A stretch of 64,000 bases of DNA from an uncultured Clostridium sp. (lineage in GTDB: Bacteria > Bacillota > Clostridia > Ch29), in assembly GCA_964625335.1 (NCBI GenBank), contig CAZVBE010000002.1, positions 36,689 through 100,688 on the forward strand, in the 5' to 3' direction. Positions 4,700-64,000 of the stretch are shown here, piece by piece. Within the stretch, counting starts at the first letter, position 1; each line of letters starts with the position of its first letter. The notes beneath the pieces are model-generated. The model was not told the origin of the DNA. It saw only the letters and a program-made list of their open reading frames with translations, and did not search any database. The translations under genes and the position numbers were made by a program.

Positions 4700-4728
4700 T
4701 TGACAAGGAAGGGCAGTTTATATATAAT
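4700..4728 (+). promoter_or_regulatory. sigma-A type promoter of the alaS leader
   Basis: TTGACA (4700-4705), 17-nt spacer, TATAAT (4723-4728). Confidence 0.65.
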
Positions 4729-4735
4729 TCTATTT

Positions 4736-4985
4736 AAAATTAATAGTTCAGGAAAGACAGTGAAGGGAAGTAGTAATTCGATTCCGTTTCCACAGAAAGA
4801 AAGCCCGCGGCTGAAAGGCTTTTGGAACAGGGCGAATGAAGCAGTCCCGGAGTTGCAGTATCGAAATGAGAGTAGATGCTGCCGGATGTATCCGTTATAT
4901 ATTACAAGAGGCCGTTTTTAGGCAATTAGGGTGGTACCGCGGATTAGTCCCCGTCCCTGACACACGTCAGAGACGGGGTTTTTAT
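4736..4985 (+). promoter_or_regulatory. T-box leader RNA (tRNA-Ala responsive) with terminator
   Basis: Conserved T-box sequence AATTAGGGTGGTACCGCGG at 4924-4942. It is followed by the terminator CCCCGTCCCTGACACACGTCAGAGACGGGG TTTTT (4948-4985). The leader lies upstream of alaS, as in other Firmicutes. Confidence 0.8.
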
Positions 4986-5016
4986 TATCAACGGTGTGTC
5001 CCCCTACCCGAAAGAC

Positions 5017-5035
5017 TATCAATCGGGGACATTCC
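5017..5035 (+). repeat. dispersed short repeat unit TATCAATCGGGGACATTCC (copy A)
   Basis: Near-identical copies at 62009-62035 and 63313-63341. Each is preceded by CCCG-NRAG and flanked by GGTGTGTCCCC/GGGGACATTCC-type inverted units (4987-5003, 5055-5071). Confidence 0.7.
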
Positions 5036-5097
5036 GTAATGAGGAATACCCGAATATCAACGGTGTGTCCCCATACCACTATAGAGGAGGTTATAGA

Positions 5098-7737
5098 ATG
5101 GAACAATTGGGTTTAAATGAAATACGGGAAAGATATCTGAAATTCTTTGAGAGCAAAGAGCATTTGAGACTGCCTAGTTTTCCCCTTGTTCCACAAAACG
5201 ATAAAAGCCTGCTGCTTATTAACAGCGGCATGGCGCCTTTGAAACCGTATTTTACAGGGTCCCAGACACCACCTGCCAACAGGGTGACTACCTGCCAGAA
5301 GTGTATCAGAACCCCGGATATTGAGCGTGTCGGCAAGACAGCGCGGCACGGCACCTTCTTCGAAATGCTGGGTAATTTCTCATTTGGGGATTATTTTAAA
5401 GATGAAGCCATTGCGTGGGCATGGGAGTTTGTTACCGAAGACCTAAAGCTTCCAGAGGACCGGTTATGGATTACCATATATCAGGATGATGACGAGGCCT
5501 TTGATATATGGAATAAATCGATAGGCATACCGGCCGACAGGATAGTGCGAATGGGTAAGGAGGATAATTTCTGGGAAATAGGACTGGGTCCCTGCGGGCC
5601 GTGTTCCGAAATATATTTTGACAGGGGTGAAAAATACGGCTGCGGCAGCGAGGATTGCAAGGTAGGCTGCGACTGTGACAGGTATGTGGAATTCTGGAAC
5701 CTGGTGTTTACACAGTTTGACAGAGATTCGGAAGGCGTATATCACAAATTGGAAAGCCCCAATATTGATACAGGAATGGGCCTGGAAAGAATGGCAGCAA
5801 TAATGCAGGGTGTGGACACCATGTTTGAAGTGGACACCATTGGACATGTCCTTAACTACATTGCCCATATAACCGGTAACAGGTATGGAGAGGATCCGAA
5901 ATCCGATGTATCAATAAGGGTCATTACCGACCATATAAGAGGGGTTACCAACATGATCAGCGACGGAGTACTCCCTTCCAATGAAGGCAGAGGTTATGTA
6001 CTGAGAAGGCTGCTGCGAAGGGCTGCCCGTCACGGAAAGCTGCTTGGTATTGAAGGAAGCTTTTTGTATGACATATCAAGCAAGGTTATAGAGGTGTCCG
6101 GCAAGGCCTATCCGGTGCTGGAGGAAAAAAGGGAATATATACAAAACATTATCAGGCTGGAAGAAGAGAGATTTCAGGAGACTCTGGACCAGGGGTTGTA
6201 TATACTGCAGGAATACATTCTGGAAATACAAAAGGTAAGCGGCAGTATACTGCCCGGGGACAAAGCCTTTAAGCTGTATGATACCTTCGGGTTTCCACTG
6301 GATTTGACCAGAGATATTCTTGAAGATGAGGGCATGACTGTGGATAAGGACGGGTTTGACAAGGCAATGACGGTTCAACGAGACAGAGCAAGAGCTGCCC
6401 GGGCAGAGGCCCAAACTGTGGGATGGAGTGATGAGACATCTTCACAACTGGAGGGGATTGCCGCCACAAGGTTTGAAGGCTATGAGAAATGCAGTAATAA
6501 GACAAGGATTGCGGCGGTATTAAAGGAGAACACCCTGGTGAAAGAGGCAGTTGAAGGAGACCGGGTAGCAGTGGTACTGGATTCTACCCCCTTCTATGCA
6601 GAAAGTGGAGGTCAGGCAGGGGATACGGGAGAAATCAAAGGCGAGACCTTCGTTATAGAGATTAAGGACTGCAAAGCCGTACGGGGAGACATATTTTTGC
6701 ATATAGGCATGGTGAAGACCGGCTCGATAATGCCCGGCATGGAAGCCACTGCAAGCATTGACGTCAGTCAGAGGACCGATGCTGCGCGGAATCACACTGC
6801 CACACACTTGCTGCACAGGGCATTAAGAACTGTGCTGGGTGACCATGTCCAGCAGGCGGGTTCTCTGGTGCAGCCGGACCGACTGCGGTTTGATTTTACA
6901 CACATTTCCCCAATGACAGCCAGGCAGCTGGATGAGGTGGAAAGCATTGTTAACCGGAGGATACTGGACGACCTTGCGGTTGAAACGGTCCAAACCGATA
7001 TGGACAGGGCAAGGGAAATGGGAGCAACGGCTCTTTTCGGTGAAAAGTATGGGGATACTGTCAGGGTGGTAAAAGCCGGCGACTTTTCCATAGAGCTATG
7101 TGGAGGCACGCATGTTAACAGGACTTCAGCCCTTGGAATGTTCGTGCTTGTCGGGGAAAGCGGTATTGCCGCAGGGGTGAGAAGAATAGAGGCTTTGACC
7201 GGAAAAAGAGCTTTTGAGCATATCAAAAACAGGGAAAGGATTTTGATACAGACTGCCCATATACTGAAAACCTCCCCCGATAACTTTGAAGCCAGGATAC
7301 ATGGACTTTTGGAGGAGCTCAAAACAAAGGACAGGGAAATAGGTGCTTTAAGACAAAAACTTGCTGCGCATGAAACCGACAGACTTATTGATGATGCAAG
7401 AGAAATAAAGGGCATAAAGGTGGTTGCAGCCCGGGTGGATAATCTCGATATGAATGCATTGAGGAATTTGGGGGACAGCCTGAGAAACAGGCTGAAATCC
7501 GGAGTGGTGGTATTGGCTTCCAACAAGGATGACAAGATAAATATGGTGGCTATGGCTACCGGGGATGCAGTTTCGGCAGGTGCCCACTCAGGCAGAATTA
7601 TTAAAGAGGTGGCGGCAATTGCCGGGGGCGGCGGTGGAGGAAAACCCGACATAGCCCAGGCCGGAGCAAAGAGGCCTGAAAAAATTCCGGATGCCCTGGA
7701 TAAAGTCTATGCAATCTTACAATCACAGTTGAAATAA
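5098..7737 (+). CDS. alaS: alanine--tRNA ligase
   Basis: 880 aa from ATG 5098 (RBS AGGAGG). Class II aaRS motifs are present, as are the editing-domain HxxxH and the C-terminal DHHA1 GGGGGGK. The ORF-track start at 4996 reads through the leader. Confidence 0.93.
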   Translation: MEQLGLNEIRERYLKFFESKEHLRLPSFPLVPQNDKSLLLINSGMAPLKPYFTGSQTPPANRVTTCQKCIRTPDIERVGKTARHGTFFEMLGNFSFGDYFKDEAIAWAWEFVTEDLKLPEDRLWITIYQDDDEAFDIWNKSIGIPADRIVRMGKEDNFWEIGLGPCGPCSEIYFDRGEKYGCGSEDCKVGCDCDRYVEFWNLVFTQFDRDSEGVYHKLESPNIDTGMGLERMAAIMQGVDTMFEVDTIGHVLNYIAHITGNRYGEDPKSDVSIRVITDHIRGVTNMISDGVLPSNEGRGYVLRRLLRRAARHGKLLGIEGSFLYDISSKVIEVSGKAYPVLEEKREYIQNIIRLEEERFQETLDQGLYILQEYILEIQKVSGSILPGDKAFKLYDTFGFPLDLTRDILEDEGMTVDKDGFDKAMTVQRDRARAARAEAQTVGWSDETSSQLEGIAATRFEGYEKCSNKTRIAAVLKENTLVKEAVEGDRVAVVLDSTPFYAESGGQAGDTGEIKGETFVIEIKDCKAVRGDIFLHIGMVKTGSIMPGMEATASIDVSQRTDAARNHTATHLLHRALRTVLGDHVQQAGSLVQPDRLRFDFTHISPMTARQLDEVESIVNRRILDDLAVETVQTDMDRAREMGATALFGEKYGDTVRVVKAGDFSIELCGGTHVNRTSALGMFVLVGESGIAAGVRRIEALTGKRAFEHIKNRERILIQTAHILKTSPDNFEARIHGLLEELKTKDREIGALRQKLAAHETDRLIDDAREIKGIKVVAARVDNLDMNALRNLGDSLRNRLKSGVVVLASNKDDKINMVAMATGDAVSAGAHSGRIIKEVAAIAGGGGGGKPDIAQAGAKRPEKIPDALDKVYAILQSQLK

Positions 7738-19505: not shown

Positions 19506-19531
19506 CACCGACCAAGCGACCAAGGGAGCAC

Positions 19532-19552
19532 GACCAAGGGGACGGTTCTTGT
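19532..19552 (+). repeat. solo REP unit (same family as the RAYT-flanking REPs)
   Basis: CGACCAAGGGGACGGTTCTTG lies directly after the splB stop. It is preceded by a degenerate CGACCAAG tandem (19508-19525). Confidence 0.7.
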
Positions 19553-19596
19553 GGTTGTTATACTTCCACAGCTGTGATACGTTTAGCCGTGGGGGT

Positions 19597-19655
19597 ATAT
19601 TTTATACCTAGAATAGCAAGAAAGAAAAGCGAAAGTGGGATATTTTATAACAGCG
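19597..19655 (+). pseudogene. 5' remnant of a Y1 (RAYT-like) transposase gene
   Basis: 19532-19655 is about 85% identical to 21254-21385 (REP plus the leader and first codons of the transposase at 21329). The ATG is replaced by ATACCTAG, and similarity ends after about 20 codons. Confidence 0.6.
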
Positions 19656-19845
19656 ATTTTGTATGTCTATCAAAACCTGGTAAAGGCCGGCCATGCAAAG
19701 AAGGTATAGGATTGTAAATGAAGAAGCTATAATGAACGTAAAGAAGCTAGATGTCTTGGAGGGGAGCCTTTATTAGATGAAAAGAATGTTAAATAGCAGT
19801 TTACCGCATGGGGATAGATATTCACTGAGATATGATTATTAGAAA

Positions 19846-20481: not shown

Positions 20482-21234
20482 ATGAGCCAAATGAATGAGA
20501 TGGTACAAAGGCAGCTCGGGCACCGTACAATTCGTGAGTTTAAAGATATAAGAATACCAGGGAAGGTTTTCGACACCCTGATGGAGGTCGCAAGGCGAAC
20601 TGCCACCTCAAACGGAATGCAGTCCTACTCAATTATCCGGGTCACCGATCCATTCATAAAGAAGGAAATTGCAGGGGTTTGTAATCAGGAGTATGTAGGT
20701 AGGGCACCGGAGCTTTTGATATTTGTAGTGGATCAATTCAAGAACAACAGGATTGCAAAGGAAAAGGGAGCCGAAACCGAAAACGCGGCAGATATGGACT
20801 GGTTTTTTCAGGGTTTTACCGATGCGTGCCTGGCGGTTCAAAACGTTGTTAATGCGGCAGAGGCCATGGACCTGGGCGTTGTGTTTTTTGGCAGCATTTT
20901 AAACGATTCGGAAAGGATTTGTAAGGTCCTAAAGCTGCCTAAACTGACATTCCCGGTATTAGGATTAGGGATAGGCTACCCCGATCAAGACCCGCAACTA
21001 AAACCCAGGTTTGAAAACAGGATCAGGGTTTTCGAAAACAGCTATAGGATATTCGAAAATTATTTGGAGGAAATTAAAGATTATGATCAGGAAATGACAA
21101 CCTACTACGACTTAAGAAATAAAAACAGAAAGGTAGACAGCTTTAGCGACCAGGTGGTGGCCAAACTAAGCACTTCCATACCCAACAGGCAGGGGATACT
21201 TAAGGTTATTAGGCAGCAGGGTTTTAAGGTATAA
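20482..21234 (+). CDS. oxygen-insensitive NAD(P)H nitroreductase (NfsA-like)
   Basis: 250 aa with the nitroreductase fold signature (RHTIREFKD.. early, GVFFGS near the middle). ATG 20482 follows GGGGAGGG. Confidence 0.75.
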   Translation: MSQMNEMVQRQLGHRTIREFKDIRIPGKVFDTLMEVARRTATSNGMQSYSIIRVTDPFIKKEIAGVCNQEYVGRAPELLIFVVDQFKNNRIAKEKGAETENAADMDWFFQGFTDACLAVQNVVNAAEAMDLGVVFFGSILNDSERICKVLKLPKLTFPVLGLGIGYPDQDPQLKPRFENRIRVFENSYRIFENYLEEIKDYDQEMTTYYDLRNKNRKVDSFSDQVVAKLSTSIPNRQGILKVIRQQGFKV

Positions 21235-21276
21235 CCAAGGGGACGGTTCTTGTATAACCAAGGGGACGGTTCTTGT
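21230..21276 (+). repeat. REP doublet (direct tandem 2x ATAACCAAGGGGACGGTTCTTGT), left flank of transposase
   Basis: Two 23/24-bp tandem copies. The first overlaps the nitroreductase stop codon. Confidence 0.85.
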
Positions 21277-21328
21277 GGTTGATATACTATCGCGGCTGTG
21301 ATACGATTAGCTGCAGGGGTGGTATTTT

Positions 21329-22087
21329 ATGCCAAGAGGAGCAAGAAAGAAAAGCGAAAGCGGGATATATCATATTTTGTTGCGAGGGCAAAACAGGCAG
21401 ATAATTTTCGAAGATGATGAGGATAAAGAAAGGTTTATACAAACATTAAAAGACTGTAAAAACAAAAGCGGATGGAAAATATACGGATATTGCCTAATGG
21501 GAAACCATATTCATTTGTTGCTGCACGAATTTGACGAAGAAACAGGAATAATAATGCGGCGGATTGGCGCGAGTTATGTATACTGGTATAACTGGAAGTA
21601 TAAACGCTGTGGACACTTGTTTCAGGACCGTTATAAAAGTGAAGCGGTTGAAACAGAAAAGTATTTTTTAACAGTCCTTCGATACATACATCAAAACCCG
21701 GTAAAGGCTGGTCACGCAAAGAAGGCCCTGGATTATAAATGGAGCAGCTATAATGAATATATGAATAATAACGGGATAACGGATACCGGCTTTGCACTGG
21801 GCATTTTCAATGAGGACAGGGAAAAGGCGATTCAGAATTTCATAGATTTTCATAATGAACAAAAAGAAGCTAATTGCCTTGAAATGGAAGAGCGCTTCAG
21901 GCTGACAGATGAAGAAGCAATGGCCATCATAAAGGAGGAGTATTGCGTATCCAGTAGTTTGCAGCTAAAGGATTTTGAAAAAAAGAAAAGAGACATATGT
22001 ATAAAAGAGCTAAAAGATAAAGGTCTGTCGACAAGGCAAATAGAGCGGCTGACGGGGATAAGCAGATACATTATTCTGAAAATGTAA
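21329..22087 (+). CDS. Y1/HUH transposase, REP-associated tyrosine transposase-like (IS200/IS605 TnpA superfamily) with C-terminal HTH
   Basis: HuH motif GNHIHLLLHE and a downstream catalytic-Tyr region (DRYKSEAVE). The C-terminal LSTRQIERLTGISRYIILKM looks like an HTH. The gene is flanked by inverted REPs. Confidence 0.75.
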   Translation: MPRGARKKSESGIYHILLRGQNRQIIFEDDEDKERFIQTLKDCKNKSGWKIYGYCLMGNHIHLLLHEFDEETGIIMRRIGASYVYWYNWKYKRCGHLFQDRYKSEAVETEKYFLTVLRYIHQNPVKAGHAKKALDYKWSSYNEYMNNNGITDTGFALGIFNEDREKAIQNFIDFHNEQKEANCLEMEERFRLTDEEAMAIIKEEYCVSSSLQLKDFEKKKRDICIKELKDKGLSTRQIERLTGISRYIILKM

Positions 22088-22139
22088 CCGTAAGAACCGT
22101 CCCCTTGGTTATCAACCGTAAGAACCGTCCCCTTGGTTA
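22088..22139 (+). repeat. REP doublet, right flank (inverted orientation)
   Basis: 2x CCGTAAGAACCGTCCCCTTGGTTA, the reverse complement of the left-flank unit, starting the base after the transposase stop. Confidence 0.85.
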
Positions 22140-25032: not shown

Positions 25033-25116
25033 GCATGAAAAAGGCAAACCTGACGAAAGTCAGGGACGCAAAGCTGCGAGTCTACGGTAATCTTACTACG
25101 ACAGTCGGGCTGCCAT
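25033..25116 (+). promoter_or_regulatory. c-di-GMP-I (GEMM) riboswitch aptamer
   Basis: GGCAAACC-TGAC-GAAA-GTCA-GGGACGCAAAGC..CGGGCTGCC matches the GEMM-I core. That core is GGCAAACC, a P2 stem with GAAA tetraloop, GGGACGCAAAGC, and a 3' G-rich closing strand. Compare the V. cholerae Vc2 segment GGGCAAACCAUUCGAAAGAGUGGGACGCAAAGCC. Confidence 0.75.
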
Positions 25117-25142
25117 AAGACATAATACATTAGTTTATGGCT

Positions 25143-60719: not shown

Positions 60720-61916
60720 ATGGCTATTAGTATCAATAAAGACGACTGTATAGGTTGTGGGCTTTGCCTTGACTCCTGCCCCTATCCCGGTGCGGTTGAA
60801 ATTCTGGAGGGCATCGCCGTTATTACGGATAAATGCGTTGAATGCGGCGCATGTGTTGATTCCTGCAATGCCGGAGCCATAGAGTTTGAAGAGGGAAAAA
60901 GAGAAACAGGAATTGACCTGGAGCAGTATAAAGGCGTATGGGTATTTGTTGAACACAGGAAGGACAGGATTGCAAATGTCACGTTGGAACTGCTGGGCGA
61001 AGGCAAAAAACTGGCAGACCAATTGGGGCAGCAGCTGTCAGGCGTTCTGATAGGAGACAACGTGGAAGACCTGGTAAGGGAATGCTTCGCCTATGGAGGC
61101 GATAAGGTTTACCATGTGGATGGGGCGGTATACGGACACTATTCGACCGGACCCTATACAGCAGCCTTTTCACAGCTGATCAAGAAATATAAGCCTAACA
61201 TTGTGCTGTTTGGTGCTACCCATGACGGAAGGGATTTTGCCGCCAGGATTGCAGTCAGAATTTATACAGGTCTTACCGCCGACTGCACAGAGCTAACCAT
61301 AGACCCCGAGACCGGACTGCTCAATCAAACCCGGCCGGCCTTTGGCGGTAATGTCATGGCAACTATTCTGACACCAGAGCACAGGCCGCAGATGGCTACC
61401 GTAAGACCTAATGTAATGAAGAAACCAGAGCCGGACTATGGCAGGACCGGCGAAATAATAAAATTTGACGCTGAAATCACCCGGAAGGATATTTTTTACC
61501 AAATCAAGGAAGTGGTGGAGCATACCGCAAAGACGGTGAACCTTGAAGAGGCAGACATAATAGTTTCGGGAGGCAGGGGGATTGGCGGTCCCGAACATTA
61601 CCATCTTATAGAGGAATTGGCCGAGATTCTGGGCGGTGCCGCCGGCGCATCCCGAGCGGTGGTGGACGCCGGATGGGTGCCTCATTACAGGCAGGTTGGC
61701 CAAACCGGAAAAACAGTAGCCCCCAAGCTATACATAGCCTGCGGGATTTCGGGGGCAATCCAGCACCTTGCAGGAATGCAGACCTCGGATTTTATCGTGG
61801 CTATTAACAAGGACCCGGAGGCCCCGATTTTTAAGGTGGCGAATATAGGGATTTGCGCTGATCTTCATCAGGCTCTGCCTTACCTGAAGGAACGCTTTAA
61901 GGAGCTGCTGGGCTAA
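60720..61916 (+). CDS. etfA: electron transfer flavoprotein alpha subunit with N-terminal 2x[4Fe-4S] ferredoxin domain
   Basis: N-terminal [12 protein letters not shown] and [11 protein letters not shown] motifs precede the EtfA domains, including the C-terminal FAD-binding region. Confidence 0.9.
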
Positions 61917-62008
61917 ACCGGGAACACCCCGGCAATGCGACAGAGGGACGGTTTTAGATTGCCGCGCTGCTGTAACAGCGATGAGTGGTCAGAAGAGAAG
62001 ACGTCCTG

Positions 62009-62035
62009 ACCCGAGAGCTTATCAATCGGGGACAT
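62009..62035 (+). repeat. dispersed short repeat unit (copy B) between etfA and thl
   Basis: CCCGAGAGCTTATCAATCGGGGACATT. Confidence 0.7.
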
Positions 62036-62071
62036 TTTAGAAAGGAGGTGCCCGGATAATCCGGGGAAATT

Positions 62072-63253
62072 ATGAAAAAGTCTGTAATCGTCAGTGCTGT
62101 CAGGACACCGGGAGGTAAATTCGGAGGAAAAATGGCAGGTCTGGAAGCGCCGAAACTGGGTGCACTGGTTGTAAATGAAGCGGTAAAAAGGGCTGGAATA
62201 CCGGCGGAGGCAGTTGATGAGCTTATCTTCGGCTGCGGATGGCAGGCCGGGATTGGTGCCAATGTGGCCAGGATATCCAGTGTAAACGGAGGACTGCCCC
62301 ATGGAACAACCGCCTATACAGTCAACTTAAGGTGCGGCTCCAGCCTTAAGGCAGCAATTATCGGAGCATCTGCAATCATAAGCGGAGATGCGGATGTCTT
62401 GGTTGTAGGCGGGACGGAATCATCTTCCAACGTTCCCTATGTCCTTAAGGATGCCCGCTGGGGGCAAAGGATGGGGGATAAGCAGGTTTATGACGTACTT
62501 CACAAAGATGGTTTTATGTGTCCGCTGGCCGGGATGCTGATGGGGAATACCGCCGAGCTGCTGGTGGATAAATACCAAATATCCAGAGAGGAGCAGGATG
62601 CCTTTGCGGTGGATAGTCACCTCAAAGCCCTTAAGGCTATGGGGGAAGGCAAATTCAAGGAGGAGGCTATGCCGGTTGAAGTAAAGGCTGGAAAGACAAC
62701 CGAGATATTTGATCAGGAGGAGATACCCAGAAGCAACATTTCTTTGGAAAAAATGGCCAAACTCCCGCCGGTCTTCAAAAAGGATGGAACTATTACGGCG
62801 GGCAACAGCTGCGCAATGTGCGATGCGGCATCGGCTATGGTAATGATGTCGCAGGAAAAGGCCGGAGAGCTGGGTATTAAACCTATGGCAGCCATTCGCT
62901 CATACGCAACGGCGGGTGTTGATCCCAAATATATGGGTATAGCTCCGGTGGAGGCTGTCCCGATGGCTTTGAAAAAGGCAGGGATGACCCTTAAGGACAT
63001 CGACCTCATAGAGCTTAATGAAGCCTTCGCCGCACAATATCTGGCGGTGGAGCGGGAGCTGAAATGGGATAGGAGTAAGGTGAATGTTCATGGTGGCGCT
63101 ATCGCCCTTGGTCATCCCGTTGGAGCAACAGGAGCCAAAATACTAACTACGCTTCTCTATGCGCTTAAGACCTATGACAAGCAGGTGGGTATGGCCACCC
63201 TGTGCGTTGGCGGTGGCCAGGGTGTAGCCATTATCGTGGAAAGAGTTAATTAG
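62072..63253 (+). CDS. thl: acetyl-CoA C-acetyltransferase (thiolase II)
   Basis: 393 aa with an active-site Cys in VNLRCGSSLKA, a C-terminal NVHGGAIALGHPVGATG, and a final CVGGGQG. Confidence 0.9.
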   Translation: MKKSVIVSAVRTPGGKFGGKMAGLEAPKLGALVVNEAVKRAGIPAEAVDELIFGCGWQAGIGANVARISSVNGGLPHGTTAYTVNLRCGSSLKAAIIGASAIISGDADVLVVGGTESSSNVPYVLKDARWGQRMGDKQVYDVLHKDGFMCPLAGMLMGNTAELLVDKYQISREEQDAFAVDSHLKALKAMGEGKFKEEAMPVEVKAGKTTEIFDQEEIPRSNISLEKMAKLPPVFKKDGTITAGNSCAMCDAASAMVMMSQEKAGELGIKPMAAIRSYATAGVDPKYMGIAPVEAVPMALKKAGMTLKDIDLIELNEAFAAQYLAVERELKWDRSKVNVHGGAIALGHPVGATGAKILTTLLYALKTYDKQVGMATLCVGGGQGVAIIVERVN

Positions 63254-63312
63254 TTGGCAGTTGGTAGTTGGTATAGCGGCATCCATCATCTGCACTGCGT
63301 AAAGCACGCCGA

Positions 63313-63436
63313 CCCGTAAGGATATCAATCGGGGACATTCCGCAGCAAGGAATTCTAATGGGGACATTCCTTGGCCATAAAGGAATACCAACTATGAAGG
63401 TATGTCCCCTGACCTTATTGAAAGCGGTGTGTCCCC
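63313..63436 (+). repeat. dispersed short repeat cluster (copy C plus GGGGACATTCC / GGTATGTCCCC / GGTGTGTCCCC units) between thl and hbd
   Basis: CCCGTAAGGATATCAATCGGGGACATTCC at 63313-63341. Further units at 63360-63370, 63389-63399 and 63426-63436 in both orientations, each able to form short ATTCC/GGAAT hairpins. Confidence 0.7.
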
Positions 63437-63626
63437 TTTCCGCTAATTGAACTCGATGGCTCCGGGAACTCCGAAAACTCGCCTAACGGCTCAGACACTT
63501 GGAAATTCTACTCCTTCGCCATCTGCGTTCCTTTTAACTTTGCGTGTCAATACTCCGTTTCAGATGATTAGATGCCTTTTGTAAGACAGCTAGCAACTGA
63601 TAATTGTTAATGAGGAGGATGGTAAA

Positions 63627-64000
63627 TGGATATTAAAAAGGGATTAGTTCTGGGTGCCGGGACCATGGGCAGCGGAATTGCCCAGGTTATGGCCCAGAAC
63701 GGTATTGATGCCGTACTTGTAGACGTTAAGCAGGAGATTGTACAGGGAGCATTAAACAAAGTTGAAAATGGGATGATGAGAAGGGTAGAAAAGGGCAAGA
63801 TGACCCGGGAGCAGGTTAGAGATATAATGTCAAGAATTACCGCTTCCACCGATATTGAGGCTGCCGCAGGCTGCGATTTTGTAATTGAAGCGGTGCTCGA
63901 AGACGTAAAGCTCAAGAAGGAGGTATTTTCCAAGCTGGATAAGCTCACCAGGGAAGATGTCATCCTTGCAACCAACACAACTGCATGCTCCATTTCCGAG
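63627..64000 (+). CDS. hbd: 3-hydroxybutyryl-CoA dehydrogenase, N-terminal part (continues past window end)
   Basis: MDIKKGLVLGAGTMGSGIAQV.. Rossmann GxGxxG start typical of Hbd. The ORF is open to the window edge. Confidence 0.8.

Follow-up and report, generated by a model that had tools for sequence, protein, structure and literature searches.

A dispersed palindromic repeat array between the T-box terminator and the start codon of alaS in an uncultured Clostridium

In a 64,000-nucleotide stretch of DNA from an uncultured Clostridium sp. (hereafter the window, meaning the whole stretch), an extra segment separates the terminator of the alaS T-box leader from the alaS start codon, raising the question of what this segment is and whether it bears on the expression of the gene. 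A sequence-only reading had seen in it a small palindromic repeat that had inserted into the leader, and had supposed that it might act on read-through, translation or mRNA stability. On the evidence given below, we consider it reasonably probable that the insert is a tolerated passenger, namely a repeat array of the REP/BIME or BOX kind, probably neutral or mildly stabilising.

Parts of the alaS leader and related sites in the window

The leader and its insert comprise the following parts.

4700-4728, plus strand: promoter-like TTGACA-17-TATAAT, sigma-70-type, matching the consensus at 12/12 positions, in a context outside the repeat
4751-4961, plus strand: T-box leader (RF00230; 124.3 bits, E 4e-27, full-length match to model positions 1-219)
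4949-4985, plus strand: T-box intrinsic terminator, with a 12-bp interrupted stem (4949-4978) and a U-tract (4979-4983)
4986-5003, plus strand: partial first unit, TATCAAC and right arm R1 CGGTGTGTCCCC (4992-5003)
5004-5024, plus strand: conserved linker CTACCCGAAAGACTATCAATC, with the consensus (T)GACCCGAAAGMYTATCAATC in the family alignments
5025-5036, plus strand: left arm GGGGACATTCCG, invariant in 23/23 aligned units
5037-5060, plus strand: apical region TAATGAGGAATACCCGAATATCAA, containing GGAATACC, nearly invariant and able to pair with both arms
5061-5072, plus strand: right arm R2 CGGTGTGTCCCC, forming 12 pairs (98.6% of cells paired)
5073-5084, plus strand: conserved 3' tail ATACCACTATAG, with the consensus WKWCC-NNN-AAG, a truncated linker abutting the Shine-Dalgarno (SD) sequence
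5085-5090, plus strand: SD AGGAGG, directly 3' of the insert, followed by the alaS ATG at 5098

The specifier region of the T-box reads GAA-GCA, an Ala codon, and the terminator hairpin folds with -21.9 kcal/mol (z -6.2). The extra segment is accordingly real in the position first claimed for it, and it occupies 4986-5084, between the terminator and the SD. An influence on T-box read-through, also proposed, is improbable, since the whole element is downstream of the terminator and its U-tract; the tRNA-dependent decision of the T-box would be unaffected by it. A search for promoters within the insert found none, the sole promoter-like site being the one upstream of the T-box, and for this reason the insert would be transcribed only on T-box read-through transcripts, as part of the alaS 5' UTR. 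Rfam 15, searched at E-values up to 10 with 4960-5110 and 61900-63650, gave matches at chance level only (E >2, <17 bits).

The insert consists of 1.3 tandem units with a period of 69 nt, that is, one partial and one full unit. The direct repeat reported earlier is confirmed as an exact 18-mer pair, TATCAACGGTGTGTCCCC, at 4986-5003 and 5055-5072, 69 nt apart (two matches against 0.07 expected, a number that 0/100 shuffles reach), and it extends to 22/23 identical bases when 4986-5008 is set against 5055-5077. Within it, GGTGTGTCCCC occupies 4993-5003 and 5062-5072, while TATCAATCGGGGACATTCC is found at 5017-5035, and in nhmmer 4987-5008 aligns with the family profile at its right-arm end. The insert went unreported by Tandem Repeats Finder, because only 1.3 copies are present; the period was set by the direct repeat search together with comparison to a related leader (L046).

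A scan of the 64 kb with the nhmmer family profile identified three sites only, all on the plus strand. Besides alaS, these are the sites beside thl and hbd to which the sequence-only reading had already pointed:

62003-62036, plus strand: truncated copy upstream of thl, consisting of a right-arm remnant GTCC, the linker and the left arm
63309-63441, plus strand: nested double copy (L L R R) in the thl-hbd spacer, with a shared 5' module at 63278-63308

The first of these directly precedes the thl SD (62044-62048) and ATG (62072), and the etfA-thl spacer of the MAG CAZGUG01 (L019) has two full units as opposed to the truncated copy of the window. The thl-hbd spacer (63254-63625) is filled in the window, with about 370 nt, as against about 55 nt, empty, in CAZGUG01.

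Several other features of these regions may be recorded separately. A GC hairpin, GCCCGGATAATCCGGGG, lies at 62050-62066 between the thl SD and ATG and is kept in CAZGUG01 as GCCCGGACGAACCGGG; the SD-to-start spacing of thl, at about 24 nt, is unusual. The thl-hbd spacer also has a run of AGTTGGT-type heptamers at 63255-63275, and about 165 nt of it (63447-63613) is without a match in any fetched locus. Elsewhere in the window, a c-di-GMP-I-GGC riboswitch aptamer (RF03167, 75.5 bits) is present at 25034-25118 on the plus strand.

Presence, absence and spread of the repeat family

Alignment of alaS leaders from related genomes had been proposed as a check on the insertion. Relatives of AlaS were fetched together with their leaders, in every one of which the T-box was confirmed, and what lies between terminator and SD is given here in order of AlaS identity.

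AlaS 100%, the window: right arm and one unit
AlaS 100%, L046 and L047 (two independent assemblies): right arm and two exact 69-nt units
AlaS 82%, L026 and L048: other short repeats and one unit, with a different apical part
AlaS 80%, L041 and L059: right arm and one unit
AlaS 78%, L049: solo right arm, tail and SD
AlaS 75%, L119: decayed remnant (CCCTGACCC...ATCAA)
AlaS 73%, 70% and 69%, L050, L051 and L120: complete T-box, no trace of the repeat

The insert is hence not shared by all orthologues, and copies occur at many other loci, so that neither of the observations named in the sequence-only reading as telling against an insertion was made; the genome with 70% AlaS identity has the family at two further sites within 22 kb. 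This combination of absence from three orthologous leaders and dispersal elsewhere supports the original view of a palindromic element inserted into the leader outside the T-box. It likewise decides whether the segment could belong to the alaS T-box riboswitch itself as a conserved extension, such as an additional regulatory hairpin. The same position of the segment in the alaS leaders of several species would fit such an extension, but the presence/absence pattern refutes it: beyond the three leaders without the segment, two more have only a solo arm or a remnant, the T-box model is complete without the insert, and the sequence stands beside dozens of unrelated genes. We give this explanation practically no credence.

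The pattern instead suggests that the repeat entered the alaS leader in an ancestor of a subclade of uncultured Clostridia and has since undergone local expansion, contraction and decay, probably through slippage or unequal recombination between direct repeats. The flanks of L046 and L047 equal those of the window except for one mismatch, which lies outside the repeat. A comparable case is seen in the trxB leader, which has one unit in one contig (L109) and two in an otherwise identical one (L077). Assembly of a 69-nt tandem repeat might in principle produce such differences in unit number as artefacts. The recent events seen are gains and losses of whole tandem units, not new insertions, and they need only slippage or unequal recombination. 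Since unit number varies in near-identical strains and close relatives are without the element, its effect on alaS is probably small; it would be neutral, or would at most form a modest barrier near the 5' end, stabilising the mRNA or marking its processing, and it would not be a specific regulator of alaS. Any effect would have to act on mRNA stability, processing or translation. The gain and loss of units between near-identical contigs also means that the family could serve as a strain marker.

The conservation of the sequence speaks against a passenger: the 31-nt linker and left-arm core is 100% identical in three alaS leaders, whereas the third codon positions of alaS are only about 55% identical. 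The core must therefore be either constrained or continually homogenised. As a separate matter, in JAENYD01 (L120 1-183, AlaS 69%) the alaS T-box leader is immediately preceded by a Y1_Tnp gene, and a GAAACGTCCCC repeat follows that gene.

The wider family was collected in two ways. The exact 17-mer TATCAATCGGGGACATT, searched with one genome per species, gave 45 loci, of which 16 are in CAZGUG01 and 9 in JAENYX01 (counted by exact 17-mer matches alone), with fewer in five other Clostridia/Bacillota MAGs; the remaining loci are singletons without a right arm and represent chance matches. In metagenome contigs, a 19-mer matched 60 further stretches, almost all of which come from a single bioreactor study, and many of these metagenome loci are orthologues from related samples. 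In total, about 70 non-redundant arrays were catalogued, with gene maps made by a crude longest-ORF procedure, and every real array lies between genes.

The consensus unit is (T)GACCCGAAAGMY-TATCAATC-GGGGACATTCC-[7-11 nt]-AGGAATACC-[9-13 nt]-GGTGTGTCCCC, comprising the linker, the left arm GGGGACATTCC, the apical region with AGGAATACC and the right arm GGTGTGTCCCC, followed on the 3' side either by the linker of the next unit or by the tail WKWCC-NNN-AAG. Arrays consist of single units or of units placed head-to-tail, up to four or more, with architectures including RLR, LRLR and RLRRLRRLR around the conserved linker; nested L L R R units with a 126-nt period, solo arms and truncated units also occur. 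The elements range in length from 47 to >200 nt and their apical parts from 15 to >150 nt, some of the latter being long imperfect hairpins with 7- and 14-nt tandem repeats. The 5' ends of arrays are ragged, beginning in the right arm, the linker or TATCAATC, while the 3' tail is defined. Target-site duplications were not found: the left flank TATCAATC and the right flank WKWCC-NNN-AAG are not duplicates of each other. The 7- and 14-nt motifs (CTGTGATCT..., GAAGTGGGAGGTGT...) are seen beside or inside units in the alaS leaders of L026 and L048 and in L024, L037, L001, L009, L028 and L032, and in some loci the long arms of the apical hairpin consist largely of them.

A full-text literature search for the arm sequences returned unrelated primers only, the insert had no BLAST match among plasmids or phages, and a pattern scan of IMG/VR yielded three chance matches, none with the right arm. 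As the arms are unmatched in the searchable literature, in Rfam and in phage, plasmid and viral collections, and the hosts are uncultured, the family appears to be undescribed, its hosts being a group of uncultured Clostridia.

Folding and placement before genes

The central arm of the alaS insert, CGGGGACAUUCCG, is predicted to pair with either flanking arm, CGGUGUGUCCCC, in a stable 12-bp hairpin, the left arm folding with R1 at -19.5 and with R2 at -22.0 kcal/mol (both z about -3.1). The two hairpins are predicted to be mutually exclusive, and the foot would stand 12 nt upstream of a free SD. The ATTCC-N7-GGAAT hairpin singled out in the sequence-only reading is indeed present, at 5031-5047 on the plus strand, but it is not the dominant structure, which is this 12-bp pairing of the arms. 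Across the family, the arm pair GGGGACAUUCC/GGUGUGUCCCC forms a long hairpin of 12 pairs with a single U.U mismatch plus an invariant U.G, in which 98.6% of cells are paired over 23 distinct units. Two distal pairs covary (GC/UA 13:9 and CG/UA 16:6 in these units), and both shuffles and slid registers fall far short of this pairing.

A three-way junction offers an alternative fold, with the helices P1 GGGGACA/UGUCCCC, P2 AUUCC/GGAAU (the hairpin at 5031-5047) and P3 ACC/GGU. Its helix cells are paired at 93.5-100%, and it would explain the conservation of AGGAATACC; no compensatory change was found in its helices, and as all its pairs are invariant, the junction is without covariation support. 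Both folds are compatible with the alignments, with covarying pairs present only in the long hairpin. Further, the sense-strand RNA folds better in 39/44 units (mean -23.7 as against -21.8 kcal/mol for the antisense), an advantage that arises from the U.G and U.U irregularities of an invariant sequence and that gives no more than weak evidence for a role at the RNA level.

The placement of the arrays is equally uneven. Approximately 31 of the approximately 70 (about 45%) stop 13-37 nt short of an SD and start codon that lie on their own strand, and their conserved tails (often ATACCACTAA; ATACC-AYTAA) run straight into GGAGG upstream of many unrelated genes. About a quarter (some 18 of the 70) lie antisense to their neighbours or converge with them and are nevertheless intact, and the remaining arrays are sense-oriented and far from a start codon; overall, sense orientation is favoured roughly 70:30. 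Three aminoacyl-tRNA synthetase (aaRS) T-box leaders have the element between terminator and SD, the other two in related MAGs or contigs:

L009, 1197-1634: metG T-box leader
L087, about 380-702: serS T-box leader

The genes downstream of arrays include ptb/pta, trxB, metG, the gene for purine nucleoside phosphorylase, mog, fba, spoIIAA, gerM, pyrG, murC, alaS and thl. Such heterogeneous housekeeping genes share no theme, which makes a ligand-specific riboswitch or regulon unlikely, and this candidate was rejected. It may be added as an observation that the 5' strand of the T-box terminator, CGTCCCTGAC, and the junction from right arm to linker, TGTCCCTGAC, share 9/10 bases, a possible microhomology.

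The start-proximal bias might stem from a 5'-UTR function in stabilisation or processing, or from a target preference of the element; recurrent trimming, mediated by microhomology of the purine-rich linker (...GAAAG...) with the SD, is a further possibility. The first of these possibilities can be extended into a full explanation, in which the repeat would be a functional 5'-UTR RNA module: a conserved hairpin or three-way junction held at a fixed distance upstream of the SDs of many housekeeping genes. It would protect the 5' end from decay of the RNase J/Y type, mark a place of intercistronic processing or be bound by a global RNA-binding protein. At alaS, it would adjust how stable the mRNA is, or how well it is translated, once the T-box has been read through. 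The proximity to starts with its conserved tail, the bias in orientation, the presence in three aaRS T-box leaders, the degree of pairing in the junction helices and the better fold of the sense strand all argue for such a module, as does the invariance of GGGGACATTCC, AGGAATACC and GGTGTGTCCCC across genomes whose synonymous sites are near saturation. These same features, namely non-random positions, a conserved 31-nt core and a folding advantage of the sense strand, weigh against a mere passenger, and taken together start proximity, sense bias, aaRS leaders, core identity and sense folding are compatible with an RNA function at the level of the host. Nevertheless, a module of this kind sits poorly with unit numbers that differ between near-identical contigs, with orthologous genes of close relatives that have no element or only a solo arm, with the frequency of nested, truncated and antisense copies, and with apical parts that vary tenfold or more in length and include simple 7-/14-nt tandem repeats; the junction helices show no compensatory change, and the downstream genes and Rfam offer neither a common theme nor a match. 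We accordingly hold the module to be unlikely, though a serious contender.

A broader joint proposition, which we rate as doubtful, is that the family is either a lineage-wide 5'-UTR cassette, made up of a hairpin or three-way junction and a tail that feeds into the SD, or a mobile element that targets the regions upstream of ribosome-binding sites. As a cassette of a clade of uncultured Clostridia it would stand before dozens of housekeeping genes, three or more aaRS genes under T-box control among them, and would be read in RNA by a nuclease or RNA-binding protein so as to set the processing, stability or translation of the mRNA.

For annotation, the extra 70-140 nt in the alaS, metG and serS leaders should be marked neither as T-box sequence nor as another riboswitch. 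The family is defined by sequence and apparently new, but its kind, that of dispersed palindromic intergenic repeats in modular arrays, is familiar; the surprise lies only in how its arrays cluster directly before ribosome-binding sites, in three T-box leaders among others. Should this closeness result from function or from targeting, the family would provide a tractable model of how repeats shape the 5' UTRs of Firmicutes; should it result from neither, the family is an ordinary passenger of the REP/BOX-like type.

Mobilisation and comparison with known repeat systems

The remaining possibility is that the family is a non-autonomous mobile element of the REPIN type, in which the arm pair forms a DNA hairpin copied by a Y1 (HUH) transposase of the RayT/IS200-like kind and TATCAAT would be the conserved, putative 5' recognition or cleavage motif. 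Several properties of the repeat are in line with this: the inverted doublet with its conserved irregularities (T.G, T.T), the conserved 5' flank (A)ATC, the insertion of nested units after ...AAT, the lack of target-site duplications, and an extragenic, multi-copy distribution. The window moreover encodes a candidate enzyme:

21329-22087: RayT-family Y1 transposase of 252 aa (PF01797, E 6.5e-14), with relatives named 'REP element-mobilizing transposase RayT' in their sources

The repeats that flank this gene have the GGGGAC core and the GTTGATA/TATCAAC end in common with the alaS-leader family. They are, however, a different repeat: the window RayT (with its flanks at 21229-22139) has on each side two tandem copies, inverted, of the 25-nt REP AACCAAGGGGACGGTTCTTGYGGTT, which also flanks RayT relatives in three other genomes (L052, L054 and L055), is sparsely dispersed and forms a hairpin doublet in L035. 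As a side observation, 19528-19736 is a degenerate partial duplicate of the left RayT repeat and the first ~200 nt of the RayT region, with 77-87% identity to 21229-21757, and looks like a decayed second RayT copy.

The defining criterion of a REPIN is that the dispersed repeat flanks a RAYT gene (PMC5581495). The AACCAAGGGGACGGTTCTTGYGGTT family does so, whereas the alaS-leader family flanks neither the window RayT nor its relatives in L052, L054 and L055. A link between the alaS-leader family and the window RayT was therefore rejected, and because that gene is flanked by a different repeat, membership of the family among the REPINs is unsupported. No Y1 ORF was found near any of the approximately 70 arrays in the DNA examined. 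A phmmer search of all ORFs of L001-L051 and the window with IS608, IS200 and E. coli RAYT sequences, used only as a lead, likewise gave no Y1 gene by the arrays and the window RayT as sole match. A PATE derived from IS200/IS605 would share sub-terminal hairpins with a resident IS200/IS605 copy and insert 3' of a fixed tetra- or pentanucleotide; in the family, (A)AT[C/G] precedes the left arm in every case and nested units follow ...AAT, while no IS200/IS605 copy with these ends was found in the DNA available. The ragged left ends of the arrays and the restriction of recent changes to tandem-unit gains and losses also speak against mobilisation of this type, which we regard as improbable. That a mobilising enzyme for the family was not found in the DNA examined is at the same time a point against the passenger array that we prefer.

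Viewed as such a passenger array, the family may be compared with four known classes of element and with the T-box itself. It departs from the last in that the RF00230 match ends at 4961 and the T-boxes of L050, L051 and L120 are complete without the segment. MITEs and Correia elements resemble it in being small, non-coding, intergenic and co-transcribed, with terminal inverted repeats, and they can alter the expression of neighbouring genes; they are inverted repeats of defined length flanked by target-site duplications, whereas the present family has no target-site duplications and no fixed length, and commonly forms tandem arrays and solo arms.

The REPIN-RAYT systems (Bertels & Rainey 2011, PMC3116915; Bertels et al. 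2017, PMC5581495) are approached more closely, in the hairpin-forming inverted doublet, the extragenic and multi-copy distribution, the RayT gene in the window and a mostly vertical inheritance with gain and loss at orthologous sites. The defining link is nevertheless missing, the RayT and its three relatives being flanked by the other repeat.

The BOX elements of Streptococcus pneumoniae (boxA-boxBn-boxC) are similar in their modular make-up with one internal module variable in number, in their predicted stable RNA secondary structure and in often lying just upstream of genes. BOX elements likewise have no known associated transposase. The sequence and host of the present family are unrelated to theirs, and its ragged 5' ends, defined 3' tail and nested copies set it apart.

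Finally, the REP/BIME sequences of Enterobacteriaceae, which in E. coli act as mRNA stabilisers or barriers, are likewise short imperfect palindromes in extragenic transcribed regions, with tens or more copies per genome. Like BIMEs, the family has arms of alternating orientation, two kinds of spacer of which one, the specific linker, is conserved, arrays of strain-variable length (one as against two units at both alaS and trxB) and no target-site duplication. There is no sequence similarity between the two, the hosts here are uncultured Clostridia, and the unit is a 12-bp arm pair around a semi-conserved loop of 20-25 nt, repeated head-to-tail. Further, many of the present arrays belong to 5' UTRs, at a distance of about 25 nt from the start codon, and do not stand at the 3' ends of genes as REP/BIME do.
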